Shown here: one piece after another, positions 33,021-54,800 of the stretch
How the letters are laid out: each line of letters begins with the position of its first letter
Position numbering within the stretch: the first letter of the stretch is position 1
Source of the DNA: Candidatus Micrarchaeota archaeon
GTDB taxonomy: Archaea; Micrarchaeota; Micrarchaeia; Anstonellales; Bilamarchaeaceae
Assembly (NCBI GenBank): GCA_038046765.1
Contig: JBBSVN010000012.1
Span: 36,044-100,043, forward strand
Reading direction: 5' to 3'
Length of the DNA: 64,000 nucleotides
Made by a program: the position numbers and the translations under genes
Notes under the pieces: model-generated
Seen by the model: the letters and a program-made list of their open reading frames with translations, nothing else
What the model was told of the DNA's origin: nothing
The model's database searches: none

Positions 33021-34379
33021 TTAAATCAGCCTTATTTCTTTATTTTCCTTATCAAGTTGCATTAAACTAACTGTTGCACCATTTTTAGTTGCTTTTTTTA
33101 TTGCAGGGTTTTGACACAGAACTTGCTTTAAGAAATTTAAAACTTCTGGATCAGAATGTACAATCACAATATGTCCCGTACTTTTAACACAATTAACAGA
33201 AGCAAGTGCATATTCAATGCTTCCAAGTGCTTCTTCGCTTAATTCTGCGTTTTTCAAACTAACCGCGAATAACTCGTTTAAATCTGCACCAAAGAACGTG
33301 CGGCCATTTGTTACATTGCCTAAATCTTTTGGATCGCTTAAAATTATCGCGTGAGCATACTGTTCTGCAAAAGTTTTTCCTGCAATTTTAGCGTGCATGA
33401 TCGCGATTCGCACTTCGGATGTGGTTTCTGAAACAAAATCAGATAATTCTCTTGTTTTAGAATAAGTAAGTCCTAAATCAGTTGTATTAAATCCGATTAC
33501 TCCCGCATATACTTTTATTTTTCTTTCTCTTACAATATCTAAATTAGCTAATACTTCTCTTTGATATTCTGTGTTATTGATAAATATGTTGGGGTGACCA
33601 GAGCCTTTTATGTGGATTCGATCTAATAACCTATCAATGCTTTGGCTTTTTCCGCGGTGTTTATGTTCGTCTTTTTTAACTAAGCATGCTCCGCAACCAA
33701 TGTGGCCAATAACAAAAATTTCGCCATTTTCCTTAAGTTTGTCTATTACTGCACGTACTTCATCAGTTACTGCATTTCCCGCAATCTGTACAGTTGCTAT
33801 GTGTTTACCCTCATAATGCCTAAGAGACGTAGCCTCACACCTGGAATCAGAACACATTAATACAACTGCGTCATACTCTTTAGGTGTTTTTACTAAAGTA
33901 CGTTCAAGTGCTCCTTTAGCTCCTGCAATTAAAATTTCTCTTGACGCTTTGATGTCAAGGAGTCCTTGTTTTGCTATTATTCTTTTTAAGTCATCTATAT
34001 AAAACGGATTTTTTCTGCTTTCTCTTACTGAATCTGGAATAAGTAATCTTTCACTTCGAGTAAAACTTCTTGGTCGTGCTACTTCTTTATCTGTTTTTCT
34101 TGGGTCTTCTCTATGCTCTACTCCTCTTAATTTTTGTAACGAAAGAATAATATTTTCTGCATCTTTTAATCTTTTTTTAGCCGTTTTGTCCTTTTTGTTT
34201 TGAATCAGTTTTTCCTTAATCTTTTCTATATTGGCAACATTGAATTTCCGATCTCCAAGAATTAGCGTAGCTTCAGGAAAATTCTGCTTATTTAAGTCTA
34301 AGCAAAAATCAATTAATTCCTGGTGAAGCATAGGATCGGTAATCTGAATATTTTTTAACTTCAAGTCCGGACACTTCAA
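33021..34379 (-). CDS. Beta-class carbonic anhydrase-like protein: an N-terminal ~130 aa extension, a catalytically intact beta-CA domain, and a degenerate second beta-CA-like domain.
   Basis: CSDSRC (Cys plus the Asp/Arg dyad), QIAGNAV, and VIGHIGCGA (His and Cys) give all three Zn ligands. The C-terminal half repeats the fold without ligands. Confidence 0.65.
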   Translation of the reverse strand: MKCPDLKLKNIQITDPMLHQELIDFCLDLNKQNFPEATLILGDRKFNVANIEKIKEKLIQNKKDKTAKKRLKDAENIILSLQKLRGVEHREDPRKTDKEVARPRSFTRSERLLIPDSVRESRKNPFYIDDLKRIIAKQGLLDIKASREILIAGAKGALERTLVKTPKEYDAVVLMCSDSRCEATSLRHYEGKHIATVQIAGNAVTDEVRAVIDKLKENGEIFVIGHIGCGACLVKKDEHKHRGKSQSIDRLLDRIHIKGSGHPNIFINNTEYQREVLANLDIVRERKIKVYAGVIGFNTTDLGLTYSKTRELSDFVSETTSEVRIAIMHAKIAGKTFAEQYAHAIILSDPKDLGNVTNGRTFFGADLNELFAVSLKNAELSEEALGSIEYALASVNCVKSTGHIVIVHSDPEVLNFLKQVLCQNPAIKKATKNGATVSLMQLDKENKEIRLI

Positions 34380-34428
34380 TACATCGCCTAATTCTATGTC
34401 TTTTTTTATGTTTTAAAAACTTATAAAA

Positions 34429-35448
34429 CTATGCTAGAATAAAAGTTTGGCCATTCATCTTGTTGAACTTCATCAGGGTAATTAGTTTTCCATTTTGGCT
34501 CTTTTCTTTTATTATTTTACTTTCAAGAATCTGTTTTTTTAATTCCTTAACTGTATCACTATCTGTATGAAGTATCATTATATGTGGTGAGTCCTTAACT
34601 CCATGAACCTTTAATAGTGCATCTTCTATTGCTGCAATTGATACTGTAGCTATTTTCTTACCAAAGTTACTCACGCATATAATTTCGTTTAAATTTCCGT
34701 CAAAGATTATTCTGGGGTTGTTTACTAAACCTAGGTCTAGTGGGTCGCTTAAAATAATTGTATGTGCATATGCTGCATTCAAATTTACTCCCTGGTTTTT
34801 AGCCTTTGTTAATCTGCTGCTTAAACTTCTTTTTAATCCGTTTATACTGTTGCTTGGTTTACCATCTTTTAGAAATCGTATTGGTTCAAGACTATTTGTA
34901 AAATCTGCAAGTACTGGTATTATTGCTGCTTTTTTAGATATTAAAATTTCGTTGTGTTTTAATTTTTCTACCTGGTTTATTGCATTTGCAGAGTATATAT
35001 CTTTTGCAAAACTATCCTTTTTACCAATTTCCACGTGACTAATTAAATTATCTATGCTGTTACTAATTCCTCGGTTATTGCTTTCCTGTGCTTTTAAATC
35101 ACATTCATAGCACATTAGCGATCCGCAGACAATTACTTCTCCATCTTGTTTTATTCTGATAAATCCGTTATCCAAATCATCTGTTACTATCTGCCCTGCA
35201 GTTTGTATGTTTAAAATTTTTTGTTCTAGGTAATCTGTTAGAATTGTTGGATCAGTGCGTGGTCCAGTTGATGAAACTAAAACTAAATCATATTCCGCCG
35301 GTTTAGCCAAGTTCGCTTTCTTTTGGGTTATTTGCCTTACAAATGCTGCGTTTCCTGCAATTAACAAATCAAGCGATTCTTTTACTAAAATTGGTTGCTG
35401 CGTTTGTACTTTCTTCATTACGACATCGAGTAATACCATCGAACGCAC
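34429..35448 (-). CDS. Beta-CA-like paralogue (duplicated domain) with a degenerate active site.
   Basis: Co-linear with the neighbouring gene (LIAGNAAF, QTAGQIVTD), but CxDSR is replaced by VSSTGPR and HxxCG by GSLMCYEC. The C-terminal half (AHTIILSDPLDLG...) is homologous to that of the neighbour. Confidence 0.55.
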   Translation of the reverse strand: MRSMVLLDVVMKKVQTQQPILVKESLDLLIAGNAAFVRQITQKKANLAKPAEYDLVLVSSTGPRTDPTILTDYLEQKILNIQTAGQIVTDDLDNGFIRIKQDGEVIVCGSLMCYECDLKAQESNNRGISNSIDNLISHVEIGKKDSFAKDIYSANAINQVEKLKHNEILISKKAAIIPVLADFTNSLEPIRFLKDGKPSNSINGLKRSLSSRLTKAKNQGVNLNAAYAHTIILSDPLDLGLVNNPRIIFDGNLNEIICVSNFGKKIATVSIAAIEDALLKVHGVKDSPHIMILHTDSDTVKELKKQILESKIIKEKSQNGKLITLMKFNKMNGQTFILA

Positions 35449-35540
35449 CTCTGGTGGATAATTAGTACTTTATAGTAATAGCTTATGCTAGTAAAGAATT
35501 AAAAAAAGGAAAGATTAAATTATTTGAAAAATATTTAAAA

Positions 35541-36083
35541 TTATTTTCTCATTTTCTTGGATTTTTCCTCTAAGATCATTCCCGCTTTAAGAAGTCCTGC
35601 CAGAAGTTGATACGGGTTAGGTGGGTTTCCAGGTACATTTACATCAACTGGTACAGTATCTTCAACTTTTCCGCTTCCAGCTAATGCATAACTACCTTGA
35701 TATGGAAAACCCGTAACTGCACCATCTCCTGCTGCGACAACTACGCGCGGGTCTGCCATCGCATCATAACTTTTCTCAAGTGCAAGTTTCATATTCATTG
35801 TAACTGGACCTGTAACAATAATTACATCTGCATGCCTTGGCGAGGCTACATAGTGGATTCCAAATCTTTCTGCATCTACACGCGGGTTCATCATCATCTG
35901 TTCTTCAAGTTCGACATCGTTTGGCGAACCAGCGTCAACCATTCTAACGTGTATTGACTGCGCAAAAGGGTTAAGACTGCGTTTTTTAAGTAGTTCTGCA
36001 ACCTCTCTAATATCTGGGTCATCTGAATTAGGATCTATACGGTCCGGATATTTTTCAAAAAGGAATTTGAATATTTCAAACAT
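35541..36083 (-). CDS. NuoB / [NiFe]-hydrogenase small-subunit homologue lacking all four [4Fe-4S] N2 cysteine ligands.
   Basis: Aligns with the NuoB core (RFG..ASPRxxDVxIVxG, VPVD..VPGxPP), but CC is replaced by SP, GSCA by GDGA and GCPP by GNPP. The protein has no Cys at all. Confidence 0.75.
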   Translation of the reverse strand: MFEIFKFLFEKYPDRIDPNSDDPDIREVAELLKKRSLNPFAQSIHVRMVDAGSPNDVELEEQMMMNPRVDAERFGIHYVASPRHADVIIVTGPVTMNMKLALEKSYDAMADPRVVVAAGDGAVTGFPYQGSYALAGSGKVEDTVPVDVNVPGNPPNPYQLLAGLLKAGMILEEKSKKMRK

Positions 36084-36092
36084 ATTTACACC

Positions 36093-37649
36093 TCACAAAT
36101 CAGTACCTGCGTAAGACATATTAAAGCTTTTATTTATAAGCGGGAAATCTGGCACAATATTTCCAGGAACTAAATTTTCCGCGCCACGCCAGTTACGAAA
36201 AGATGCTGTCCTGCATCTAAAACTTTTTATTGTTCCATTATCCATTAGTTCAATCATGAATGTACAAGAACCTCTTGGTGCCTCTGCCCATCCTAAGCTC
36301 CATACACTTTTACGCGATTTTGAAACTGGTACTGGTGCAAGAATCTCGCCATTAGGCATCTTGGCAATTACTGTCTTTATGATTTCAACTGCTTGTTTTA
36401 CTTCTGCAATTTTTACTAGGAACCTGCATAATACGTCTCCTCCCTCTTCCTTCTGTTCGCTAAACTTGACCTTATCATAAAATTCGTAAGGGAAGTATTT
36501 TCTTACATCGCAGCTATATCCTGCTGCACGAGCGACAGGTCCAACTAAAGATAATTTTTGCGCAACCTCTGTTGTAACTATTCCTGTTGAATAAACCCGA
36601 TCAAGATATGTTGAGTTTGTCAATGTAACTGTTTCAAGTGTGTTTAATCTATTGACAAAGTTGTCAAGTTCGCTAACTAAAACACTAATTTTAGTCTCAT
36701 CTAAGTCTGCTTTTACCCCTCCTGGTGTACAAACTCCCCCTAAGAACCTATGGCCAGTTATTTTATTATTAAGGCGCATCATATCCTCGCGCAAAACGGC
36801 GAATCTAGATGCTGCGAAATAAAATCCGACATCTGTTGGCATTCCGCCTAAATCCGATAAATGACTGTATATTCTTTCAAGTTCAGCTAAGATCACTCTT
36901 ATTGCCTGCGCTCGTTCTGGAACTTTTATATCTAGCGCTTTTTCTACCGCTGTACAATAGCCGATCATATTCGCAATTCGTTCATCTCCTGAAATCGATT
37001 CTATAAGTGGTATTGCTTCGGTTATATTTTTTCCTTCAACTAGTTTCTCAACCCCCCGATGAAGGTAGAACATTCTTGTTTCAAGTTTGTTTATTGATTC
37101 CCCGACCACGCTGAATCTAAAATGTCCTGGTTCGATTATACCTGCGTGAACTGGGCCAACTGGAATCTGGAATTCACCTTCGGCACCCGTCATCGGCATT
37201 TCGTAAACGTAATCTGCATTTTTACCCAATCTTTTCTTCTGACCTTCTATATTTTCTAATCCGCCATCAGGATGGAAAAGTATTGGACGTGAATCTGGAA
37301 TGTTATCAAATCTAAGTCCGCTTAAATCCTGCATTTTCCTCTCATCCCATACTGCTGCGTTAACAACTGCAGAAACTGCATAAAATTCCTTGCCTTCTGC
37401 ATATAATACTGCGAATGTTTCAAGAGCTGGCACACGAAAAACATATGATGCCTGAAAGTTTCCTTTTTCTAAATCACTTATAAATGAGCTATCGAATAAT
37501 GCATTCTCTTTAATCATTTTTTCACTTAAACCTGGCAAATCTTTGGAATTACATTTTATCCAGACTATTCCTGATTGTTCAACAGAAGAAATTTTTGCAT
37601 TAGCAGATGACTCAAGCTGTTTTAAGAATTTTTCTAATTTAGAATCCAT
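36093..37649 (-). CDS. NuoC-NuoD fusion / group-4 hydrogenase large-subunit homologue without NiFe-binding cysteines.
   Basis: GPVHAGIIEPGHFRF...LHRGVEKL is a NuoD/EchE-like core. The N-terminal CxxC position reads ANMIGYC, and the C-terminus ends NMSYAGTDL with no DPCxxC. Confidence 0.75.
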   Translation of the reverse strand: MDSKLEKFLKQLESSANAKISSVEQSGIVWIKCNSKDLPGLSEKMIKENALFDSSFISDLEKGNFQASYVFRVPALETFAVLYAEGKEFYAVSAVVNAAVWDERKMQDLSGLRFDNIPDSRPILFHPDGGLENIEGQKKRLGKNADYVYEMPMTGAEGEFQIPVGPVHAGIIEPGHFRFSVVGESINKLETRMFYLHRGVEKLVEGKNITEAIPLIESISGDERIANMIGYCTAVEKALDIKVPERAQAIRVILAELERIYSHLSDLGGMPTDVGFYFAASRFAVLREDMMRLNNKITGHRFLGGVCTPGGVKADLDETKISVLVSELDNFVNRLNTLETVTLTNSTYLDRVYSTGIVTTEVAQKLSLVGPVARAAGYSCDVRKYFPYEFYDKVKFSEQKEEGGDVLCRFLVKIAEVKQAVEIIKTVIAKMPNGEILAPVPVSKSRKSVWSLGWAEAPRGSCTFMIELMDNGTIKSFRCRTASFRNWRGAENLVPGNIVPDFPLINKSFNMSYAGTDL

Positions 37650-37651
37650 AT

Positions 37652-39124
37652 TTAAACACCCCCGATTAAACTACCTGCATCTTTTATTAAATTAAGAACT
37701 GGTGCTGGAGGGAACAATGCTAATGCTATTGCAAGAAGCAAAAGCGCAATCACTGAAAATGACATGTAAGGACTTACTTCTATATGTTTTGGCATTTTTT
37801 CCGGCTTATTACCAAAGACCATATCTGAAGCTTTGTAGAGGAAACTTGCAAATGCAATTACTGTAAATACGATTACAAAAAGAGCAACTAGGTATTGTCC
37901 CTTTGATAATGCGCCTCCTAGAAGTGCAATTTCAGAAAAGAACGTACCAAATGGGATACTTCCAGCCACTCCTAAAACAGCTAGTAAAAATAAAAGTCCA
38001 AAAACAGGTACTGCGCTTGCAGCTCCCTTTATATCTGGCATATTTTTAGTGCCATATGCATTTGTTATAATTCCACCTAAAAGAAATGCTAATGGTTTAG
38101 CTAAAGAATGAGCAAGCATATGGAATAATGCTGCAAAAATTGCTATTGGTCCACCAATTCCAGTAGCTAGTACAATAATTCCCATATTCTCTACGCTTGA
38201 ATATGCTAAAAGTCGCTTAAGGTTATCTTGTGCAAAAAGACGAAGCGCGCCTACAACTAGGGAAAGCACGCCAAATAGTATAAATAATCCTGACGCAAAA
38301 CCTGCAATTTCTGGTGACAAGATTACAATTCCATATACTCTTAATATTCCATAAAGGGCTATATTTAATATAAGTCCGGATAGTAAAGCACTAACTGGAG
38401 TTGGTGCCTGACTGTGCGCATCTGGAAGCCACACATGCAACGGTACAAGACCAACCTTTGTCCCGTATCCAACTAAAACGAATACGAATGCAAGTTTAAG
38501 GTATAGTGGGTTTATTTTGGTAATATCAAACGGTGTTCCGTAAACTGGGGTTTCTAAACCTCCCTGTGCAAATGCATAAAATAAAACAAGAATTCCAATA
38601 AATGCCAGTGTAAATCCAACAGAATTTATTGTAAAGTATTTCCATGCTGCTTCTATTGAAGCTTTGGTGTTGTAAAAACTTATCAAAAACACTGATGAGA
38701 GTGTTGTAAGTTCAACTGCTGCCCAAACGTGAATTGGGTTTGATGCTAAAAGTCCAGTTAGCATTGCAGCTAAAAACAGGGAAAGCTGTGCATAAAATCT
38801 TGCGAGCCTGTCTTCTTTAATTATTCCTTCTTCTACTTCATGGCGCATATATCCTACAGAGTAAATAAATACCAGTAGTGAAACAACTGATGTAATTCCT
38901 ATTAAAAATGCTGATAATGCATCCATTCTAAGTAGTTCTGAGAAATCTGAAATCGGTGCCCCGCTACTTATGAAAATTGATATTGAAAATAGTGCTGCAC
39001 CAACTGCTCCAAGAGCGCCTAAACATGCAACTAATTCTGCAAGTCGCGGGTGTTTACCTAAAAATACAGCAATTATTCCTGCAATTACCGGGAAAAGAAT
39101 AATTAATTCAAGCATAAATATCAC
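37652..39124 (-). CDS. NuoM/NuoN/HyfD/MrpD-like antiporter-type membrane subunit.
   Basis: About 14 TM helices with conserved PF00361-type motifs (WLPEAH-like HVWLPDAH). Confidence 0.75.
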   Translation of the reverse strand: MIFMLELIILFPVIAGIIAVFLGKHPRLAELVACLGALGAVGAALFSISIFISSGAPISDFSELLRMDALSAFLIGITSVVSLLVFIYSVGYMRHEVEEGIIKEDRLARFYAQLSLFLAAMLTGLLASNPIHVWAAVELTTLSSVFLISFYNTKASIEAAWKYFTINSVGFTLAFIGILVLFYAFAQGGLETPVYGTPFDITKINPLYLKLAFVFVLVGYGTKVGLVPLHVWLPDAHSQAPTPVSALLSGLILNIALYGILRVYGIVILSPEIAGFASGLFILFGVLSLVVGALRLFAQDNLKRLLAYSSVENMGIIVLATGIGGPIAIFAALFHMLAHSLAKPLAFLLGGIITNAYGTKNMPDIKGAASAVPVFGLLFLLAVLGVAGSIPFGTFFSEIALLGGALSKGQYLVALFVIVFTVIAFASFLYKASDMVFGNKPEKMPKHIEVSPYMSFSVIALLLLAIALALFPPAPVLNLIKDAGSLIGGV

Positions 39125-40797
39125 CTTTTTTCATTAAGTTCAGCAAGTTCTCCAGTGTCAACGGTTTTCGCAATACTCTGGATTTTAAGCGCTAAAACTA
39201 CTGATACAACTACCAATACCAATATATCAAAAAGCGTAATTGCTTCGGATATAAGCGGGATGTCCACACCAAGCGCAACTGGTAAAAGTACAATTCCGTT
39301 TTCCATTATCAAAAATCCTAACATCTGTAAAAGAATGTGCGTTTTTGTTGAAATAATTAAAAGACCTATTAAAATTATTGAAAGTGCAATTGGTAAAACT
39401 ATTCCTGCAGTCAGGCTTGAACCCACTAAAAATGATACGGAAATAAGTAACACTGAAATTACTAATGCTGTCGTAGTTGTAACTGGCGCATCGATAAATA
39501 ATGGGTCGATATCGATTAAGCTTCTTAATTTCACATTCGTGTGCTTTAGTACATCGGTTATTCCCTCTGGTGTGAGGTTCGTTTTATCAAGTAAATTCTC
39601 TCCTTTTGCCATCTGGTTAAAAATTCGATATATCAAAAGCGGTAAAATTATTACCTTTAAAATTACTGTAATGCCTAGTCTTAAATAGCTGTCAACTGAA
39701 CCTGTTTTAACTGCTATAAGTGCAAAAATTATTCCAAGTGCAACGTTTTGCAATAAATATATCTCTATTCTTCTTTTGAACGTCGCTCCAAAAAGGAAAT
39801 ATAAATTGCTTATTAGCATTACGCAAAGTAATATTGGGACTGTACCGTTTGCGTTTGGGTCTGGATTAATATGTATTAAAAATGCGAATACTGCCAAATT
39901 CAAGGCAAAGACAAGAAGCTCGGCAACTTTAAATAATCTGACCTTGACGCTAAATGATTCAACTATTGCTGTAATTACTCCCAAAACTAGTACTGTTGCT
40001 AAAATTGCGGCTGTTCGGGATATCGGGTCGCTAAATAATGCAAGCGGAAAAAATAAATTTGCAAAAAGCGTGAAAAATAAAAACATTTTTGAAGCTTGCG
40101 CCCATTCTATAAGTCCAAGGCTTGGGCCAGAATTTTCAAGAATCATTGCCTCGTGGACCATTGTTAGTTCTAGGTGTGTAGCTGGGTTATCAAAAGGAAG
40201 TCTGCCCATTTCAGCTAGCATCAATATAAATAATGCGGCAGCTGCTAAATAAAATGTTGGCGAACTAAGAATTCCGAACCAGTTGTTTGGTCCATTTGCA
40301 GTGAATATCATTAAGTTGGTACTTCCTGAAAATAATACTAAAAATAAAATTGCTGCAAAAAGGACTGGTTCAATTAAAACAGAATATAATGATTCCCTGC
40401 TTGAGCCTAATCCTCCAAATGCGCTAGCTGCATCCAGGCCAGATAAGATTACTACAAATCTGCCTATTGCAAAAAGATAAACGAATATTATTATGTCTGC
40501 TACAAATGGCGGAACTGCGGTAAATATTGGTAAAAGTAATGTTGCAGCTACTGTTGAAACAAAAATAAAAATCGGTGTCGCTAAAAAGATCCATGAACTA
40601 ATATCGCTTCTAACTGTTCCTTTACTAAATAATTTTACAAGGTCGAAATATGGTTGTATTATTGAAGATCCGCTCCTACCCTGACAATATGCTTTGACTT
40701 TTCTTATGACTCCAACTAGGAGCGGTGAAAGCGCAAAAACAAATAAAATCTGTACAATCATTCCTAAAACTGAAGATATCATTGTCATAAATATCAC
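39121..40797 (-). CDS. NuoH/HyfC-like membrane subunit fused to an additional C-terminal TM domain (HyfE/NuoK-like).
   Basis: RKVKAYCQGRSGSSIIQPYFDLVKLFSKG matches the NuoH RxxAxxQxRxGP...QPxADxxKL motif. The 558 aa length is about HyfC plus HyfE. Confidence 0.7.
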   Translation of the reverse strand: MIFMTMISSVLGMIVQILFVFALSPLLVGVIRKVKAYCQGRSGSSIIQPYFDLVKLFSKGTVRSDISSWIFLATPIFIFVSTVAATLLLPIFTAVPPFVADIIIFVYLFAIGRFVVILSGLDAASAFGGLGSSRESLYSVLIEPVLFAAILFLVLFSGSTNLMIFTANGPNNWFGILSSPTFYLAAAALFILMLAEMGRLPFDNPATHLELTMVHEAMILENSGPSLGLIEWAQASKMFLFFTLFANLFFPLALFSDPISRTAAILATVLVLGVITAIVESFSVKVRLFKVAELLVFALNLAVFAFLIHINPDPNANGTVPILLCVMLISNLYFLFGATFKRRIEIYLLQNVALGIIFALIAVKTGSVDSYLRLGITVILKVIILPLLIYRIFNQMAKGENLLDKTNLTPEGITDVLKHTNVKLRSLIDIDPLFIDAPVTTTTALVISVLLISVSFLVGSSLTAGIVLPIALSIILIGLLIISTKTHILLQMLGFLIMENGIVLLPVALGVDIPLISEAITLFDILVLVVVSVVLALKIQSIAKTVDTGELAELNEKR

Positions 40798-42773
40798 ACC
40801 ATAACTGCGTAAATAAGAATTGCAACCATGACAAATAGCATGTACATCAAGTAATGTAATAATTTTCCTGTCTGGAATATTGAAGACCTGGACGAAATTG
40901 CTCTAAATCCATTTTCTATTGGCTTATAAATAACTGCCTCGAAAAATGCAGGCCCATACGCATTCTTTTCTGTATTAAGCGGATTAAGCCATCTGTTTAA
41001 TGCCCTTTGAATTGGCATTGAAATTCCTATTGGGGTATATTCCATTTTTGATTCTACTTTATGTATTCCGCAATCCCATGTAACCCTAGTAACATCATTT
41101 GCTTTTGTAAATGCTCGAATAATCCAGAGGAATGCAAAAACTGCAATTGTCGCCCCTAATAAAACCAATACGATTCCAAATGAAGGAAGGGTAAATACAA
41201 CTTTTGATGTTGCGCTCATATCGCTAATATTTAACTTTGCAAACATCGGGCTAATTATCGAAAATATTATTGTTGGGAAAACTCCCGCTATAATACACGC
41301 AATTACTAGTATGATCATTCCTATGTGCATTAACGAACCTACTTCTTTAGCGTGTTCAACATGTTCGCTTCTAGGTAATCCTAAAAATACCATTCCAAAT
41401 GCCTTAACAAAAGCTGCTAATGCCAGTGCACTTGTAAATGCGAGGACTAAAACAACTGCACCAAATAAGAATGCAATTAATTTAGGAAGTGCTAATCCTG
41501 ACAAAAGTGCCTGGAACATAGTCCATTCGCTTGCAAAACCATTTAATGGTGGCAAAGCAGAAATTGCTGCTACGCCGACAAAGAACAAAATTGCAACTAC
41601 TGGTAGTTTCTTTATCAACCCACCCATTGCGTTCATGTCTTTAGTGTGTGTTGCGTAAGCAACTGCTCCTGCTCCTGTAAATAAAAGACTTTTGAAAAGC
41701 GCGTGATTTAATGAATGGTAAAGTGCTGCAAATAATGCTAATGCTGCTAATGCGTCCATGTTTAAACTATGAAATAATACTGCAGCTCCAATTCCTAAGA
41801 AGATAATTCCTATGTTTTCTACACTTGAATAAGCGAGAAGTCGTTTTAAATCTTTTTGAATTATCGCATATAATACTCCGAATACGCAGGACACTGCTGC
41901 TAATAATAATAATAAAATTCCCCACCAGAAATGGAATGGAGTTGCACCTAAAAAGTCAAATAATACCCGAATTATTCCGTAAATTGCTACTTTTAACATT
42001 ACTGCGCTCATTAAAGCGGATATATTACTTGGTGCCTGGGGGTGTGCTTCTGGTAACCATGTATGAAATGGCATTAAACCAGCTTTTGATGTAAACGCGA
42101 TTACTGCCAACACAAAAATGATACTTGCTAACATGGGTGTTAAACTAATTGTTCTAAATCCGGCAAAGTCCATGTTTCCTGAAAATCCAGTGAAAACCAG
42201 GAACATTAAAATTAATGCAACTGCACCGATATGCGTTATTAGTAAGTATATAAAACCAGCATCTTTTGTTTTTGCTTCCTTGCTTTCATATGTTACAAGG
42301 AAAAATGAGCTAAGTGCCATTAGTTCCCAAAAAATTAAAAAAAGAAGACCGTTTTGAGAAGTTACAACTGCAATCATAGACAAAATAAAAATATTATAAA
42401 GAAAACCAAATAACGCGTTACTATATCCTTTTTCCTGGTACTCTTTCATGTAATCTATTGAATATATCGAAACTGCTAGTCCAACTAAAGAAATTAATAA
42501 TATGAAAAATCCAGAAAGCGCGTCAATACTAAAAGTTAAATTTCCAATCGGGGCAAAATTTCCCAAGTTTAATGGTGCAATATTTGTGCCCATCATTACC
42601 ATAAGCCCAGCTATTACTCCAATAATGCAACCTAAGATTGCAAATAAAAATGAAAGTTGCCTGCATAAATTTTTCCATTTGGATAAAACAAGCGACACTA
42701 AAGAACCAAATAAAAATAAAACAAAAAGGCCTAATAAACTCTGAGCGGTAAAAAGTTCAATCAAATTAACCAT
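40794..42773 (-). CDS. NuoL/HyfB/MrpA-like antiporter-type large membrane subunit.
   Basis: 659 aa polytopic protein with HTWLPEAHPQAP, a PF00361 core. It is the first gene of the operon. Confidence 0.75.
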   Translation of the reverse strand: MVNLIELFTAQSLLGLFVLFLFGSLVSLVLSKWKNLCRQLSFLFAILGCIIGVIAGLMVMMGTNIAPLNLGNFAPIGNLTFSIDALSGFFILLISLVGLAVSIYSIDYMKEYQEKGYSNALFGFLYNIFILSMIAVVTSQNGLLFLIFWELMALSSFFLVTYESKEAKTKDAGFIYLLITHIGAVALILMFLVFTGFSGNMDFAGFRTISLTPMLASIIFVLAVIAFTSKAGLMPFHTWLPEAHPQAPSNISALMSAVMLKVAIYGIIRVLFDFLGATPFHFWWGILLLLLAAVSCVFGVLYAIIQKDLKRLLAYSSVENIGIIFLGIGAAVLFHSLNMDALAALALFAALYHSLNHALFKSLLFTGAGAVAYATHTKDMNAMGGLIKKLPVVAILFFVGVAAISALPPLNGFASEWTMFQALLSGLALPKLIAFLFGAVVLVLAFTSALALAAFVKAFGMVFLGLPRSEHVEHAKEVGSLMHIGMIILVIACIIAGVFPTIIFSIISPMFAKLNISDMSATSKVVFTLPSFGIVLVLLGATIAVFAFLWIIRAFTKANDVTRVTWDCGIHKVESKMEYTPIGISMPIQRALNRWLNPLNTEKNAYGPAFFEAVIYKPIENGFRAISSRSSIFQTGKLLHYLMYMLFVMVAILIYAVMV

Positions 42774-43141: not shown

Positions 43142-44377
43142 ATGTCTGTAGATTTAAGAAGAATTAGTCACAAACTTAAATTAAGCGAAATGGATATAAG
43201 TGCAATCCCAAGTCTGCGTAGATCTACTACCCCGTTATCTATTCCTCAGTCTGCTTTTGAAATATTTCGTGGCTTTAGCCTATTTAATGAAAGGATTAGG
43301 CCAACTAAACTTCTAGGTGTACGTTTTGAACGAGTTGCTGGTCAGGCCTTTGACAAAAAGGATTTGCATTCCAGGGAAGCTATAAGAAGAAATTTATTAA
43401 GCATAAAACAAAAAGGTGCATTTTTAATTTTAGGTCATGGTGGGGAAATTGGTTGTGGTGCAATTAAGGGAAAGCAAAATCCAAATCCATCCCAACCTCA
43501 ATTAGTAAAAGATTTAGTTGAGCATATATCCGAAAGAGTCATAGGATTAGATGATTTGCAGTATGCTGCTTCTATAGAAAATGCTTTATTTCAAGGCATA
43601 AAAATTTTACACGATCCTGAATTTGCAGCAATAATTAAAGAAAAAGATATTACTGTTGTTTATGCTGTTTGCAATGGTGATGCCAACTATTCCTATAATG
43701 CCTTAAATAAAGGGCTTAATGAAAATGCACTTCTATTTAAGCACCCAAAGTTACAGCAATTAAGAGAACAGTTCCAGCATGGGTTAGCTAAAGTTTCAGA
43801 ATTTGGCATAGATCTTAAGAAACAGTATGCTTATGCTGCATTTGGTTATGATCCAGCTGAACTTGCATCTGTAATAGATAAATATAGCACTGAAATCGAA
43901 CTAGGGGGGGTATGCTGTGTTGATTCAAGACTTCCACCACATACTGGTGTTTACTATTTACTTCGAATTGAACCAAATGAAGCCTTTTCAGGAACATTTC
44001 ATCATTCAATTAGGCCTGATGGTGTTTATCAACCAATAATTTCTAAATTAGCGGCTGGGAGTATAGAATTTGGTCTTCAAAATGTTTGTGGAATAAATAG
44101 TCTAAATCCCGATAATCCTGGAAATGGGCATTTAGTTATGCTTGCAACTAGTCTAGCTAATGCAAGAAAAATGAAAGAAACTGTACTTCAATTCTCTGGT
44201 ACTGCTCGCGCAACAAAAGATGGAAAAACAATTTCACTACTTAGTTTTGATGGAAAAGAGTTAGTAATGCAAAATGATTCTCTTGGTTTTGATTTGGTTG
44301 CATCTTATGATTCTCCCGCTCAAATACTTACGCGACCTCCATCTGAATTTGCAGAACTTATGGATCAACGAGCCTAG
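43142..44377 (+). CDS. Hypothetical protein with weak beta-CA-like features, divergently transcribed from the complex-I-like operon.
   Basis: RFERVAGQAF (RNAGN-like) and LILGHGGEIGCGAIKG (GH..CGA with a 3-aa insertion). The first Cys ligand is absent. Confidence 0.35.
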   Translation: MSVDLRRISHKLKLSEMDISAIPSLRRSTTPLSIPQSAFEIFRGFSLFNERIRPTKLLGVRFERVAGQAFDKKDLHSREAIRRNLLSIKQKGAFLILGHGGEIGCGAIKGKQNPNPSQPQLVKDLVEHISERVIGLDDLQYAASIENALFQGIKILHDPEFAAIIKEKDITVVYAVCNGDANYSYNALNKGLNENALLFKHPKLQQLREQFQHGLAKVSEFGIDLKKQYAYAAFGYDPAELASVIDKYSTEIELGGVCCVDSRLPPHTGVYYLLRIEPNEAFSGTFHHSIRPDGVYQPIISKLAAGSIEFGLQNVCGINSLNPDNPGNGHLVMLATSLANARKMKETVLQFSGTARATKDGKTISLLSFDGKELVMQNDSLGFDLVASYDSPAQILTRPPSEFAELMDQRA

Positions 44378-44386
44378 AATAAGTAA

Positions 44387-45583
44387 TTATAATCCAAAAT
44401 TCTTCTTCATAATCTGCGAAACGATTTTTGGTTCTAAGCCTAATCTGATTAAAGTCGTATGTCCTCTTTGACCTTTTGTACTAGGTGTTGTCATAATTAA
44501 ACCTAAGGTTTCTAAATCTTTTAAGTATTCATGATACCATCTAACGCTTCTAGCTCTCTTCTTTAATTTCTTACAAATTAGTTCGTATTCTTCGTAAACT
44601 TCGCCAGACATTAAGAAGTTTTCTTCTCCAACATCAAGCCTAGAATACTTTGTACCATTTAAAATTAAATCTGAAATTGCCAGTAAAAGCATCTGGTGGT
44701 TTTCTGGTAAAGTTGCAAGTGTTTCCTGTGCAATATCTAATTCTACCTTTCGTCTTGCTGATTCAACTTCCTCATCAGTTACTTTTGTTTTATTATTTTG
44801 TTCAGCAGATTCTCCTGCTTTAAGGAGTATTTTTAACGCATATCTAGCATCCCCGCTTTCTTGCGCTGTTATTGCTGCTGCCAGATTTATTGCAGATTGC
44901 TGTACTACATTATCCTTAAATGCTTTTTCAGCGCGCTGTGCTAAAATCTTTTTTAATTGCTCGCTAGTATAAGGAGGAAAAACTATTTCAGTTTCGTTTA
45001 AACTGCTTTTACTTCTTTGGTCTAAACCCTGCTTAAACGTAAGTTTGTTTGAAATTCCGATTAGCGATACGCCTCCTTTACGAAGTTCGTCATTTACCCT
45101 AGTTAATGTGTAAACCATGTCGTCAAGATCTTTTATTATATCAATTTCATCAAGTACAACTATCATTACGATTCCTTTATCGCAAATCTCAATAAGTTTC
45201 TCGTATAAAAAGGTTAATCCAAATCCTGCTTTTTCAAGTTCTGGTACAAACTGCTTTAGGATTTTTTGCATTACCCTATATCTTGAATTATATATTCTGC
45301 AATTGACATAACTAATATACGCGTTATTTCTTGAAGAGCCAAATTTTTCCATCACATGTTTTACTGTTGCTGTTTTTCCGCAACCTGTTTTGCCGTATAT
45401 AAAAATGTTTTTTGATCTTTGGCCTTTAATCGCGGGACTAACTAGGGACATTATTTCCTTTATTTCTTTTCCACGAAACGGCAGTGCTTTTGGTACGAAG
45501 TGTGGTGAAAGTATCGATGCATCCTTAAATACTTTACTCTCTGTTAAAAATTCGTCAAAGGAGTCTTCGGTCATATTTTTCAC
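44387..45583 (-). CDS. cdc6: Orc1/Cdc6 replication initiator (AAA+ domain plus winged helix).
   Basis: Walker A GKTGCGKT, Walker B VVLDEIDII, sensor motifs and a C-terminal wH. Confidence 0.85.
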   Translation of the reverse strand: MKNMTEDSFDEFLTESKVFKDASILSPHFVPKALPFRGKEIKEIMSLVSPAIKGQRSKNIFIYGKTGCGKTATVKHVMEKFGSSRNNAYISYVNCRIYNSRYRVMQKILKQFVPELEKAGFGLTFLYEKLIEICDKGIVMIVVLDEIDIIKDLDDMVYTLTRVNDELRKGGVSLIGISNKLTFKQGLDQRSKSSLNETEIVFPPYTSEQLKKILAQRAEKAFKDNVVQQSAINLAAAITAQESGDARYALKILLKAGESAEQNNKTKVTDEEVESARRKVELDIAQETLATLPENHQMLLLAISDLILNGTKYSRLDVGEENFLMSGEVYEEYELICKKLKKRARSVRWYHEYLKDLETLGLIMTTPSTKGQRGHTTLIRLGLEPKIVSQIMKKNFGL

Positions 45584-51862: not shown

Positions 51863-54800
51863 TTAAACAAAATCCGCAAGTCCAAGTTGTCTGCTTTTTT
51901 CATCTTCGAAAATACTTCGTATTTCCTTTTTAACTAGAAGTAGTCTTTGCTTTAAATAATCCGGTAATTCGTAATCTGCAATAATCTTTTCTGAAATTTC
52001 TAAGTATTTTTCAATTCCTCCCTTATTTATTGTTAAAATAAGATTTCCTCCACAGAAATTGCATTTGCCCGATAACGGGACGCGTCTTAAACTTTCATTA
52101 CAACTAGTGCATCTAAATGTTTGCCTTGAAAATGATCTTAAATTACCATATAAATCTGGTATAAAATGGCTAAGGATTAATCTTTCAGCAGCATTCTTCG
52201 CATCTACTGCCCTTATTTTTCCCTGTAATTTAAATTGCGTGGTTATCTTATCAGCCATATTATCAAATGTTACATAAGCCGTTCGTAAATTTCCTTTATC
52301 TATATATCCGCCCGTATGCGTAAGCTGAATTTCAAATTGCTCGGGGGTTCCAAGTAAGTCCTTTACTGTTTTTAATTTTACTTCTGTTGGAGGTGTATAC
52401 TTTAGTGTTGCCTCATAAAATTCTTTTGGATAAGAATTCACTACTTCAATACAGTGCGCTTCATCATCAACTTCTTTTGGGTCTAACTGAGGTGTTAAAA
52501 CTAATGGCGCGTCCATTGTCCCCCCTCTTCGCTCAGTTAAATAATGCCTTGAAAAATTAATCAGGGTGTCCATAAGAAGCATGACTGAGTCTTCATCACC
52601 ATCACATTGATAAGTAGTTATTCCAGAACAAATAAGACTGTGGTACTTTTCTACCGTTACATTGTAAACAAATTTATCTTGGTTTTTGATCGTTTTTCTC
52701 TCAATAACCTGATCAATAAAAGTGTCTCCTAAATATTCTGTCCTAGATCCTTTTCTTTTTGTTTCCCACTTCTCCAAAAGTTTTTGCGCTTTTTCTTGCT
52801 TTAAACCAGAAAATCCTATGTTATCAATAAATTTTTTAGCTTCACTAGAATAAATTCTTATCTTATATGAATGAATATATTTGGGTCTGCCATAAAACTT
52901 TATAATCAGAGAACTTTTTACGTATCTATCTTCTTCATAAATCGAATGCTTAATTCCAAAGAAATTTAGCAAAATGGAAACTCCATCTATCAGTTCCTTA
53001 TTTATAGAAGTTACATTCACCTCCAGGGTATTGCCTAAAGAACAAGAACCATCTCCCGTGAAGTAACCTTTTAGCAGTGCAATCACTTTTTTATTTGGCA
53101 AAGAATAGACAAAATCAGGTATTTTTTTAGTTTTTGCATTTCTACCTATTTTTAACTTTTCAAAGAGTTCGTAAATATATCTTGAACAAATTGTTATATG
53201 TGTTTTATTTACATGAGGTTTAATTCCAAAAACTTTCTCAATTTTTTCTTTTATTATATCTACTGCCCATTCTTTGGTAGCTGTCAAAGAAACCTGATAA
53301 CAATCTATCTGCTTATTTTTAGTAAACCCCTCCGCTAAATAAAATCCGATTAAATAGAAGAAATCCTCATCAAGCTTTATTGTTGGCTTTAACAGAACCT
53401 TATCCCTCTTACTACCTAATATATATTTTTTACTCGCCAGTATGTCTGCTCTAAATTCTTTTACCAATTCCAACGGATAAGATTTTCTATATATATAATT
53501 AGTGAAAGTTTTGTAATTTAATCCAAAACTTCTACTTATTTGAGATAATTCTCCCTCTTCATTGAATAATTTCTCATCTGTTCTTATCATTGCATCTGTA
53601 ATATTCAAACTAGAAATAAGTTCCATGTCTTCCCTATCTATAATTTCCCTTTGCAAATTCCAAGGAATTATTAGTTCTTCAACTTCATTCGCGCTTACTT
53701 TTTCTCCTTTTGAATTCGGAAATTTATGGTCTGGCGTTACCGTTATTCTTCTGCCAGATTTTGTTTTTAACTTTACTAAATTTTCTGGTGCAATATGTTT
53801 TGAAACATGCGTAATATTACATAATTCAAATTTTTTCATTTTCTTGTTCCAAGCATATGTCTTTACTCCTTCTACTAGTTTATATTGAGTCCCAAAATCA
53901 TCTATTTCTGTTTTTCCGACTAAATTACTTTCTACAAAATCCATTATTTTCGTAAGTTCTAGTGATCCGTTTCGCTCGACCAAAATTTTTTCTTTTCCAT
54001 CAAAACAATTTCTCCTTCGCGCTGATATCAAATAAGGATGAGCATAAGATAAATTTGCCTTTGTAAAACCTACAATTCTGCAAAGAACTGCCGCGCTAGT
54101 GTGTGGCGAAAGACAAGCAGTTAGTTGTCCTATTAAGTCCTGTTTTGTTAATGCATTATAAAACGGCGCAAGCCCGTAAACGTTTACTAATAAATCATCG
54201 ATAAATTTTGCAGCCTGTAAGAAATATTCTCCATTCGCTTCTGGTATTACAATGTCCTGTATTTTAAGTGAAACAAGTTGGTTTTCGTTAGTTAATTCAT
54301 TTCCATAATAATCTTTCAAATAGCCTAAACTTCTTAGTTTTGCAATACTAACCTGTGCTTCACTTGGTTTAAAATGAGTTAAAGGGACGTTACTGGCATC
54401 AAAGCGCATTGTTCCATCACGAAATACATAAACCCCATATTTCGCCCTTAAAAATCCTTTTTCTAAAAGTTCGGGCGTACGCTCTAAATTAGATAACCCC
54501 TTTATTCCCTTTACATCCTCAACGCTTATGTCTAGTTTTTTCTTTATTGAATCATAAAGTTCGATCATATCTATGGGTTTTTTTTCAAAGCATACTGTTT
54601 CCTTATCACAGTGTATTTTCATGTTAACTGGGTTGCCGCATACAACGCATTTTTTTTCAATAATTGTTTCGCCCTTACAAATTTCGCATGTAGATAAAAA
54701 TGTAAGTTTTTTACAACTCGTACATCTTCTGTTTACAAGTTCAAGGTTAACTGTTCGTTCATCCCTACCACGAAGAGTTTTGTATATTTTTGTTATGCTT

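Follow-up and report, generated by a model that had tools for sequence, protein, structure and literature searches.

Results

In the window, i.e., the whole stretch of 64,000 nucleotides that was analysed, two open reading frames lie in tandem on the minus strand, at exactly the positions that the original prediction had given for the pair. W452 (33021..34379, minus strand; 452 aa) encodes a fused two-domain beta-carbonic anhydrase (beta-CA) that is catalytically complete, and W339 (34429..35448, minus strand) encodes a ligand-poor pseudoenzyme paralogue. The reading frame of W339 spans 339 aa, with the ATG at 35439 as its likely start, which gives a protein of 336 aa and matches the orthologue P0004. 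A spacer (35449..35540, minus strand) that contains an oligo-T run as well as a TATA-like box lies between W339 and the genes of an Ehr complex and, given these elements, the transcription of W452 and W339 may be separate from that of Ehr. The Ehr genes, all on the minus strand, encode a NuoB/HycG-like small subunit (35541..36083), a fused NuoC/NuoD (HycE-like) large subunit (36093..37649), a HyfF/NuoN-like antiporter-type subunit (37652..39124), a NuoH-like subunit with a fused HyfE-like C-terminus (39121..40797) and a HyfB/NuoL-like antiporter-type subunit (40794..42773), the latter being the first gene of the operon. A third CA-like paralogue, W411 (43142..44377, plus strand; 411 aa), is divergent from this operon, and W452, W339 and W411 together flank it. 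Beyond W411 lies the archaeal marker Cdc6/Orc1 (44387..45583, minus strand).

The genes around W452 and W339 (Ehr genes, Cdc6 and hydrolases) are those of an archaeal genome. Weak NCBIfam matches of the MYXO-CTERM type hinted at a bacterial origin, which is ruled out by Cdc6, PolD, TFIIE and the MAG labels. The host is a tiny symbiotic archaeon (Micrarchaeota, DPANN archaea). An Rfam scan of the window returned zero matches.

The sole Pfam match of W452 at E <= 0.01 is to Pro_CA (PF00484; 32.4 bits versus a cut-off of 25.7), and the same protein in a Ca. Micrarchaeota MAG is annotated by NCBI as 'carbonic anhydrase' (447 aa). Comparison by hhalign with a canonical beta-CA profile gave a probability of 99.7% (E 4e-25) for the zinc-site-bearing domain 1 (33465..33962, minus strand; approximately residues 140-305) and of 98.6% (E 1e-15) for domain 2 (33024..33422, minus strand; approximately residues 320-452), which is degenerate and has no zinc ligands. 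The catalytic set is complete, as had been claimed, and is found in domain 1 only: the motif C176-S-D178-S-R180 (33840..33854, minus strand) supplies the first Cys zinc ligand and the Asp-Arg dyad, while H226-I-G-C229 (33693..33704, minus strand) supplies the His and the second Cys zinc ligands. Domain 2 keeps Q340, F371 and Y390 as pocket-residue equivalents, which we take to correspond to Gln151, Phe179 and Tyr205 of pea beta-CA, with a role in trans that is assumed from the pea structure and not from model coordinates. The single-sequence AF2 model of W452 was unusable (pLDDT 39). From its sequence, W452 is predicted to be enzymatically active and is most likely a CO2 hydratase, an assignment that is limited by the fact that COS or CS2 hydrolases have the same fold and ligands.

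The N-terminal extension of W452 (34005..34379, minus strand; approximately residues 1-125) comprises a small alpha/beta unit, a long and charged helix (residues 48-84) and a low-confidence linker of basic character (85-115), and a hydropathy scan detected no hydrophobic segment in it. This extension had been proposed to be unique and to act as a docking arm for the membrane complex. It is, however, shared with P0007, P0008, P0010, P0011 and the long copy in L015, and is also conserved in a 75-81% identical relative. It occurs at loci where Ehr is missing within 10 kb (L006, L015 and L021) and is absent from the Ehr-adjacent CA-like genes in L008, L009, L011 and L013. Given that the extension does not track the membrane complex, the docking-arm idea finds no support, and its distribution across homologues and loci rules out that it is unique or Ehr-specific.

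Both proteins had been described as beta-CA pseudo-dimers, and this agrees with structure and with the matches to canonical beta-CA profiles. The family has the beta-CA fold: its profile matches PDB beta-CAs with E 3.7e-13, and in structure it comes closest to true CAs (1ddz, CsoSCA 8thm and 2a5v). Similarity between half 1 and half 2 was not detected by hhalign, either with the alignment of 4 sequences or with that of 45, which means that the duplication is visible only through structure and the canonical beta-CA profiles. Word-index homologue searches retrieved only 1-3 relatives, and the query with the family alignment retrieved mostly ordinary beta-CAs. The family as collected comprises 107 matches, of which about 60 are full-length proteins with both domains. 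Among 45 family members, the first Cys and the Asp are conserved in 43 and the Arg in all 45, and the pocket residues (W452 numbering) in 40 (Q340), 41 (F371) and 42 (Y390); only W339 and its orthologue deviate at all six of the variable positions. A zinc site in domain 2 is missing throughout the family. W411 belongs to a split-motif subfamily, its motif being divided between domain 1 (H99-GGEIG-C105) and domain 2 (C259-V-D-S-R). Neither W339 nor W411 has a Pfam match of its own, and both were linked to the family via its profiles. The hydropathy scan revealed no membrane-inserting segment in any of the three proteins, with maximum values over 19 residues of 1.00 for W452, 1.45 for W339 and 0.89 for W411.

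W339 is indeed a paralogue of W452 (31% identity over 326 aa, E 3e-46) and does not have the full Cys/Asp-Arg/His/Cys set of a beta-class CA. In its domain 1, Cys is changed to Ser60, Asp to Gly62 and His to Ser110, and in domain 2 all three pocket residues are gone, their positions being occupied by A226, I257 and D276. Arg64 is kept, as is Cys113, the second Cys ligand, and the claim that every ligand had been mutated was therefore overstated. The sister of W339 in the tree is P0005 (47% identity, bootstrap 100), which rules out that W339 is a recent duplicate of W452. Given that P0005 retains every catalytic residue, the loss of ligands in W339 is derived and lineage-specific. The original prediction would have taken ligand-retaining relatives as a sign of recent decay, and a missing CA fold as evidence against it. 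The fold is present and the closest relative does keep all the ligands, yet the loss is not recent decay, given that it is common to W339 and its 75%-identical orthologue, with the same residue classes gone in both, and that dN/dS is low. The dN/dS of W339 is 0.078, similar to the 0.06-0.11 of neighbouring genes, although this value is approximate because dS is near saturation (about 2). A ratio of about 0.08 indicates a maintained pseudoenzyme and not decay, and effectively rules out a pseudogene: W339 is a pseudoenzyme under strong constraint. The dead copy is confined to the lineage whose CA pair follows the NuoB-like gene directly and in the same orientation. As beta-CAs form dimers of dimers, W339 could act as a structural or regulatory partner, and may form a heteromer with W452.

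Ehr complexes are widespread, and their function is regarded as unknown. The NuoB-like subunit encoded in the window has zero cysteines and, therefore, no N2-type [4Fe-4S] cluster; across all 7 loci this subunit has 0-3 Cys, with PGNPP replacing PGCPP. The large subunit is without the C-terminal NiFe Cys motif: its NuoD-like C-terminus ends in ...INKSFNMSYAGTDL, and the motif is absent in all 7 orthologues. The Ehr beside the CA genes thus has neither NiFe nor Fe-S ligands and, judged from these residues, is cofactor-less. This feature, the archaeal nature of the genome and the presence of W411 had all escaped the original prediction. The antiporter-like subunits have Proton_antipo_M matches as well as HyfB/HyfF NCBIfam matches, and contain invariant membrane-embedded Glu/Lys/His, as seen in the HyfF/NuoN-like subunit of the window. 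In the literature, we found no report linking Ehr complexes to flanking beta-CA-like genes.

CA-like genes lie next to Ehr in 6 of the 7 informative Micrarchaeota loci (the window, L001/L002, L008, L009, L011 and L013). In these Ehr-anchored loci the CA-like genes lie within 3 kb and belong to different CA subfamilies, and in L008, L011 and L013 they accompany Ehr without Cdc6 nearby. At L012, Ehr is followed directly by GlmS, and the CA pair is absent. When CA-like genes served as the anchor, Ehr was found within 10 kb in 0 of 5 long loci (L006, L015, L016, L017 and L021). Across loci, the most constant neighbour of the CA-like genes was Cdc6 (the window, L004, L005, L006, L009, L015 and L016). 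The contigs of P0020 and P0006 were too short to be informative. The orientation of the CA genes relative to Ehr varies among loci, and the shared neighbourhood occurs in two synteny contexts, one linked to Cdc6 and the other to eRF1...GlmS. Given that the Ehr-bearing loci all belong to a single phylum and represent only two synteny types, 6 of 7 does not amount to six independent events. A functional coupling of the CA set with Ehr is suggestive but unproven.

Discussion

The explanation that we favor, and consider probable, is that a family of fused, asymmetric beta-CA pseudo-dimers has multiplied in Micrarchaeota, with one intact and one dead copy placed beside Ehr. Domain 1 carries the single zinc site (Cys-x-Asp-x-Arg ... 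His-x-x-Cys), and domain 2, with its own site gone, keeps the Gln, Phe and Tyr that line the pocket of the partner subunit in ordinary beta-CA dimers. The retention of these partner-pocket residues suggests that domain 2 exists to complete the site of domain 1, in a manner similar to CsoSCA. W339 would have descended from an active short-form enzyme by losing the catalytic Asp, two of the zinc ligands and all three pocket residues. The membrane arm of Ehr keeps charged residues as in a translocator of protons or ions, and its peripheral arm has neither a NiFe site nor an Fe-S cluster. It is tempting to propose that the CA set and Ehr cooperate, such that CO2/HCO3-/H+ chemistry would be tied to ion translocation as in DAB and NDH-1MS, although to this coupling we give distinctly less than an even chance. 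The same favored explanation would also accommodate soluble CAs whose synteny with Ehr is merely inherited.

That the three CA-like genes encode soluble enzymes of an ordinary kind, one partner being inactive, used for bicarbonate supply or pH buffering, and that the adjacency to Ehr reflects gene order inherited near the replication origin and is functionally meaningless, comes close to an even chance. Cdc6 and not Ehr is their most constant neighbour, none of the five long CA-anchored loci has Ehr nearby, and L012 has Ehr while the CA pair is absent. The variable orientation, the possible terminator and promoter between the Ehr and CA genes, the absence of a membrane anchor and a pocket Gln kept as in free CAs all point in the same direction. 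Inherited order is harder to reconcile with the presence of CA-like genes within 3 kb in six of seven Ehr-anchored loci, including the Cdc6-free L008, L011 and L013, and the clustering of two to three paralogues in small DPANN genomes around a cofactor-less complex, whose peripheral arm is without a known catalytic partner, needs explaining. Another proposal, which we consider unlikely, assigns the CA-like proteins to Ehr itself, as its catalytic or peripheral module. They would form a vectorial carbonic anhydrase in which ion flux through the antiporter-like subunits drives CO2 hydration, or CO2/HCO3- conversion drives ion movement, and in which the dead copy serves as an adaptor. The conservation of the neighbourhood in two synteny contexts, an Ehr that has no redox cofactor ligands but keeps its membrane charged residues, and the restriction of the dead copy to the lineage in which the pair follows the NuoB-like gene directly and in the same orientation are consistent with this proposal, for which precedents exist in DabA/DabB, in NDH-1MS with CupA, and in plant complex I with its gamma-CA/CA-like subunits. 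Nonetheless, these proteins have no membrane finger and retain the pocket Gln, CA-like genes often occur away from Ehr, one Ehr locus is without CA-like neighbours, and the loci are phylogenetically non-independent. That the Micrarchaeota Ehr, a complex-I relative that has shed all redox cofactors, employs the fused beta-CA pseudo-dimers for its peripheral module and the dead copy as adaptor is in our view quite unlikely.

With respect to the reaction catalysed, hydrolases of COS or CS2 have the beta-CA fold and identical ligands, and an archaeal CS2 hydrolase is known. Such an activity in place of CO2 hydration is nonetheless improbable for this family, whose best structural matches are true CAs, whose plant-type pocket triad Gln/Phe/Tyr is conserved, and whose neighbourhood, as far as scanned, showed no genes of sulfur metabolism. 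The loss of six catalytic or pocket residues in W339 and its lack of a Pfam match might also be expected of a pseudogene decaying after tandem duplication, a view that we regard as very improbable, given that the reading frame is intact in two genomes with 75% identity at the protein level, the same residue classes are gone in both orthologues, dN/dS is as low as that of the neighbouring Ehr genes, and the sister sequence is P0005 and not W452.

If Ehr did have the pseudo-dimers as its peripheral module, a complex-I-type ion translocator would be independently paired with carbonic anhydrase chemistry for the fourth time, and for the first time in archaea, and Ehr complexes would gain their first proposed non-redox function. 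This neighbourhood, found again in related genomes, may signify a novel membrane-coupled CO2 system, and its presence around an Ehr without Fe-S or NiFe ligands offers a concrete, testable non-redox hypothesis. Regardless of coupling, the family is a clear natural case of a fused enzyme dimer whose halves have degenerated in a complementary way: the metal site persists in one domain, and in the other only those residues that serve it. In addition, an entire paralogue has turned into a selected pseudoenzyme. The maintenance of two to three paralogues in reduced DPANN genomes implies an important role in the handling of inorganic carbon or pH in a host-dependent life.

The CsoSCA-like asymmetry of the original prediction was borne out, and lies first of all within each polypeptide, given that domain 2 is without a zinc site. 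CsoSCA (PDB 8thm; PF08936) likewise has two beta-CA-like domains and one zinc site. However, a PF08936 match is absent here at E <= 0.01, the N-terminal region differs from that of W452, and CsoSCA belongs to the alpha-carboxysome (cso) operon of bacterial autotrophs, whereas the present proteins have an archaeal host, no carboxysome genes nearby and several paralogues per genome, one of them wholly dead. In the tandem beta-CA of Porphyridium purpureum (PDB 1ddz) both repeats are active and clearly alike, in contrast to the halves of W452, which have no detectable sequence similarity and one zinc site. The DAB system resembles the present locus in placing a two-domain beta-CA-like cytoplasmic protein, DabA, beside complex-I-type antiporter-like subunits in the absence of redox cofactors. 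Here, however, the PF10070/DUF2309 match is absent, and W452, W339 and W411 do not have the membrane-inserted helix-loop-helix finger of DabA, with its amphipathic helices. The lack of family matches and of the finger rules out membership in either the DabA or the CsoSCA family. Furthermore, the pocket Gln, which is Leu658 in DabA2, is retained in 40 of 45 members, including Q340 of W452, which makes these enzymes look like ordinary, freely reversible CAs and not gated vectorial ones. The partner of DabA is a single NuoL-like DabB, whereas here it would be a five-gene Ehr with NuoB-, NuoCD- and NuoH-like subunits.

Cyanobacterial NDH-1MS, with CupA/CupS on NdhD3/NdhF3, is likewise a machine of the complex I family with a CO2-hydrating module, but CupA is not a beta-CA and NDH-1MS is redox-driven, whereas Ehr is without Fe-S or NiFe ligands. 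In plant mitochondrial complex I, active subunits and ligand-less (CAL) ones occur together in the gamma-CA domain; these are of the gamma class and the complex is redox-driven, in contrast to the beta-class proteins and cofactor-less Ehr found here. Both NDH-1MS and plant complex I carry a CO2-hydrating or CA module, and the link between Ehr and CA seen here is one of gene neighbourhood. Compared with known Ehr complexes, that of Micrarchaeota shares the group-4 hydrogenase-like large subunit without NiFe cysteines and the antiporter-like subunits, but differs in that its small subunit is also without the four-Cys cluster motif and in that it is flanked by beta-CA-like genes.

Genomic context of the CA-like genes

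The genes for the 452-aa and 339-aa carbonic anhydrase (CA)-like proteins, W452 (33021-34379, minus strand, TTG start) and W339 (34429-35448, minus strand, GTG start), are the final two in a seven-gene co-oriented run. W339 probably starts at an ATG at position 35439, where its orthologue P0004 also starts, and would then be 336 aa long. Upstream of them lies a cluster of the energy-converting hydrogenase-related (Ehr) type, also on the minus strand, which encodes a HyfB-like subunit (40794-42773), a NuoH-like subunit fused to a HyfE-like C-terminus in a single ORF of 558 aa (39121-40797), a HyfF-like subunit (37652-39124), a fused NuoC/D-like subunit (36093-37649), and a NuoB-like subunit (35541-36083). 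In the related loci L008 and L010, the region of the NuoH-like/HyfE-like fusion is divided among two or three ORFs, possibly through frameshifts or because the gene is truly split there. The window also carries Cdc6/Orc1 (44387-45583), PolD DP2 (51863-56623, minus strand) with an intein bearing a LAGLIDADG homing-endonuclease domain, PolD DP1, and TFIIE-alpha and, therefore, the genome is archaeal. At NCBI, a Candidatus Micrarchaeota MAG has an entry under the name 'carbonic anhydrase' whose sequence matches W452 at 100% identity.

Between the NuoB-like stop codon and the W339 gene are an oligo-T run and a TATA-like box, which leave it uncertain whether Ehr and W339 are co-transcribed. The AT-rich minus-strand spacers 35449-35540 and 34380-34428 hold the oligo-T run and TATA-like boxes before each CA gene; these boxes may be separate archaeal promoters, in DNA of 34% GC where such motifs are common by chance.

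Two asymmetric domains and one putative active site

The prediction that W452 is an internal pseudo-dimer was borne out. The AF2 model, built with a 45-sequence family alignment, has a mean pLDDT of 84, with residues 125-452 mostly above 90, and the family profiles of both halves match a profile of 60 canonical beta-CAs (domain 1, probability 99.7%, E 4e-25; domain 2, probability 98.6%, E 1e-15). Profile-profile comparison of the two halves with each other gave no similarity with either 4 or 45 sequences. W339 is a paralogue of W452 (31% identity over 326 residues, E 3e-46), and the pseudo-dimer assignment is carried over to it through this full-length homology.

Between W452 and W339, only W452 passes Pfam Pro_CA (residues 171-258, 32.4 bits, cut-off 25.7). 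Its site, in domain 1, is formed by C176-S-D178-S-R180 and H226-I-G-C229; over 45 family members, R180 is conserved in all, C229 in 44, and C176, D178, and H226 in 43 each. In the alignment to canonical beta-CAs, domain 2 has D349 and K351 at the Cys and Asp positions and is without the GHxxCG segment. The hydrophobic pocket of plant-type beta-CAs is made of Gln151, Phe179, and Tyr205 (pea numbering), and in the pea enzyme these residues of each active site come from the partner subunit. Domain 2 of W452 has Q340 aligned with the conserved Gln that precedes the first Cys ligand, F371 (NELF) at the Phe of GDLFV, and Y390 (SIEYAL) at the Tyr of SIEYAV (conserved in 40/45, 41/45, and 42/45 members, respectively), while the equivalent Gln and Phe positions are lost from domain 1. 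Judged from these residues, the domains appear to have degenerated in a complementary fashion, each retaining precisely the residues that one active site shared between them would need.

When all 1.84 billion representatives were scanned by HMM, 107 matched; about 60 of these are two-domain proteins of 330-450 aa, and C-D-R-H-C is kept in nearly all. A third member, W411, was overlooked in the original prediction (43142-44377, plus strand, 411 aa, divergent from the Ehr operon; 44% identity to the homologue P0083, E 2e-25 versus the family HMM). Its domain 1 has GHGGEIGCG with the CxDxR strand missing, and its domain 2 has CCVDSR with HxxC missing. All 16 sequences of its subfamily are alike in this, with GHGGxxxCG and no CxDxR in domain 1, and CxDxR and no HxxC in domain 2. 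This division of the ligand set between domains points to a zinc site that is composite or formed by a strand swap.

W339 as a putative pseudoenzyme

W339 had been described as mutated at every ligand position, which overstates the case: the residues aligned to the W452 site are S60, G62, R64, S110, and C113, so that W339 lacks the catalytic Asp and two of the three zinc ligands but keeps the Arg and the second Cys. W339 and P0004 are both of the exceptions at C176, D178, and H226 in the 45-member family, and at Q340, F371, and Y390 they carry Ala, Ile/Val, and Asp/Asn. The entire site, beyond the ligands alone, is erased in the pair.

In a neighbor-joining tree, W339 and P0004 are sister to P0005 (bootstrap 100), a 344-aa short-form protein, 47% identical, which rules out W339 as a recent copy of its neighbor W452. 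P0005 keeps all ligands, so that relatives of the dead copy with intact ligands do exist. The original prediction had named such relatives as its refutation, the loss then being simply recent decay. That reading does not follow from them, given that the dead state is common to a 75%-identical relative and dN/dS against that orthologue is 0.078, an approximate ratio with dS near saturation. The NuoB-like, NuoCD-like, W452, and flanking hydrolase genes give 0.057-0.114, equally approximate for the same reason. W339 is, by these measures, a selected pseudoenzyme. W452 probably hydrates CO2, and W339 could be a structural or regulatory partner, given that beta-CAs form dimers of dimers.

Association with Ehr

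The Ehr NuoCD-like anchor retrieved six Micrarchaeota MAG loci (52-60% identity), which were analysed by ORF, BLAST, and HMM. In L009, two co-oriented 411-type genes directly follow the NuoB-like gene and precede Cdc6; in L008 and L011, the order is eRF1, Ehr, an unknown ORF, two CA-like genes of other subfamilies, and GlmS; L013 has eRF1, Ehr, and two CA-like genes; L012 has Ehr followed by GlmS with no CA-like gene; and L010 is incomplete. With the window and the closely related L001/L002 counted in, six of seven informative Ehr loci have CA-like neighbors, in two distinct wider contexts. From the CA side, Cdc6 adjoins the CA-like genes in L004, L005, L006, L015, and L016, and Ehr is found within 10 kb in none of the five long loci (L006, L015, L016, L017, and L021). 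The association is one-sided, since Ehr is nearly always by CA-like genes whereas these are often without Ehr, and it comes from few independent events in a single phylum.

In L012 (5690-8165), GlmS comes straight after Ehr; L008 (12082-17949) and L011 (12043-18057) have an unknown ORF and a pair of CA-like genes between the two. One synteny block thus seems to have cleanly lost (or gained) the CA pair. The conserved ORF between the NuoB-like and CA-like genes (L011, 12200-13564, plus; L008, 12191-13556, plus) has no match to Pfam or to the CA family HMM. The Ehr-less loci L006 (7566-11314), L015 (8361-11158), and L005 (3616-6246) share with the window, by Cdc6, a core layout of a divergent CA-like gene and then one or two co-oriented ones; the lineage of the window seems to have had the Ehr operon inserted between that divergent gene and the pair.

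The NuoB-like subunit has no Cys in the window and one to three scattered Cys in orthologues. PGNPP replaces PGCPP in every NuoB-like protein (window, L001, L008, L009, L011, L012, and L013), with no four-Cys cluster motif, and the NuoD-like C-terminus is without a Cys motif. Together with the NiFe-less large subunit, this leaves the peripheral arm without recognisable redox cofactor ligands, which the original prediction also overlooked. The antiporter-like subunits have invariant membrane-embedded Glu, Lys, and His whose pattern agrees, on an approximate mapping, with that anticipated for TM5, TM7, TM8, and TM12, and the ion-translocating arm looks intact.

Ehr coupling and alternative explanations

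It is possible, though doubtful, that the CA set and Ehr cooperate, tying CO2/HCO3-/H+ conversion to ion movement by analogy with DAB and NDH-1MS; a non-redox Ehr-CA machine is unlikely. The N-terminal extension of W452 had been proposed as a docking arm unique to the active copy. AF2 models residues 1-125 as a small alpha/beta unit, a long helix rich in charge (48-84), and a linker that is basic and of low confidence, and conservation across the L001/L002 contig break indicates that the extension is real. It is nonetheless common to the homologues P0007, P0008, P0010, and P0011 and the long copy of L015. Its distribution does not follow Ehr, given that extension-bearing homologues occur where Ehr is not within reach (loci L005, L006, L015, and L021) and the Ehr-adjoining CA-like genes of L008, L009, L011, and L013 lack it, and its top 19-residue hydropathy window is far under the membrane range. 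For these reasons, docking to Ehr is at present unsupported.

The leading alternative takes these proteins to be ordinary soluble CAs and ascribes their position by Ehr to inherited synteny near the origin. COS or CS2 hydrolase activity of the CA-like proteins is a further alternative with which their sequences are compatible.

Comparison with known systems

A search of the available literature found no paper tying Ehr or Micrarchaeota to carbonic anhydrases; the Ehr/CA link would be new, and it draws on neighborhood evidence from one phylum. A gated mechanism like that of DAB is disfavored, given that W452, W339, and W411 have no membrane finger, that the family retains the pocket Gln that is replaced in DabA2, and that the Pfam scan gave no signal for PF10070 and PF08936. 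The complementary degeneration of two domains in the W452 family resembles that of CsoSCA. Because CsoSCA and DabA are already known as fused asymmetric beta-CAs, the proteins described here are one more variant of that kind of protein.
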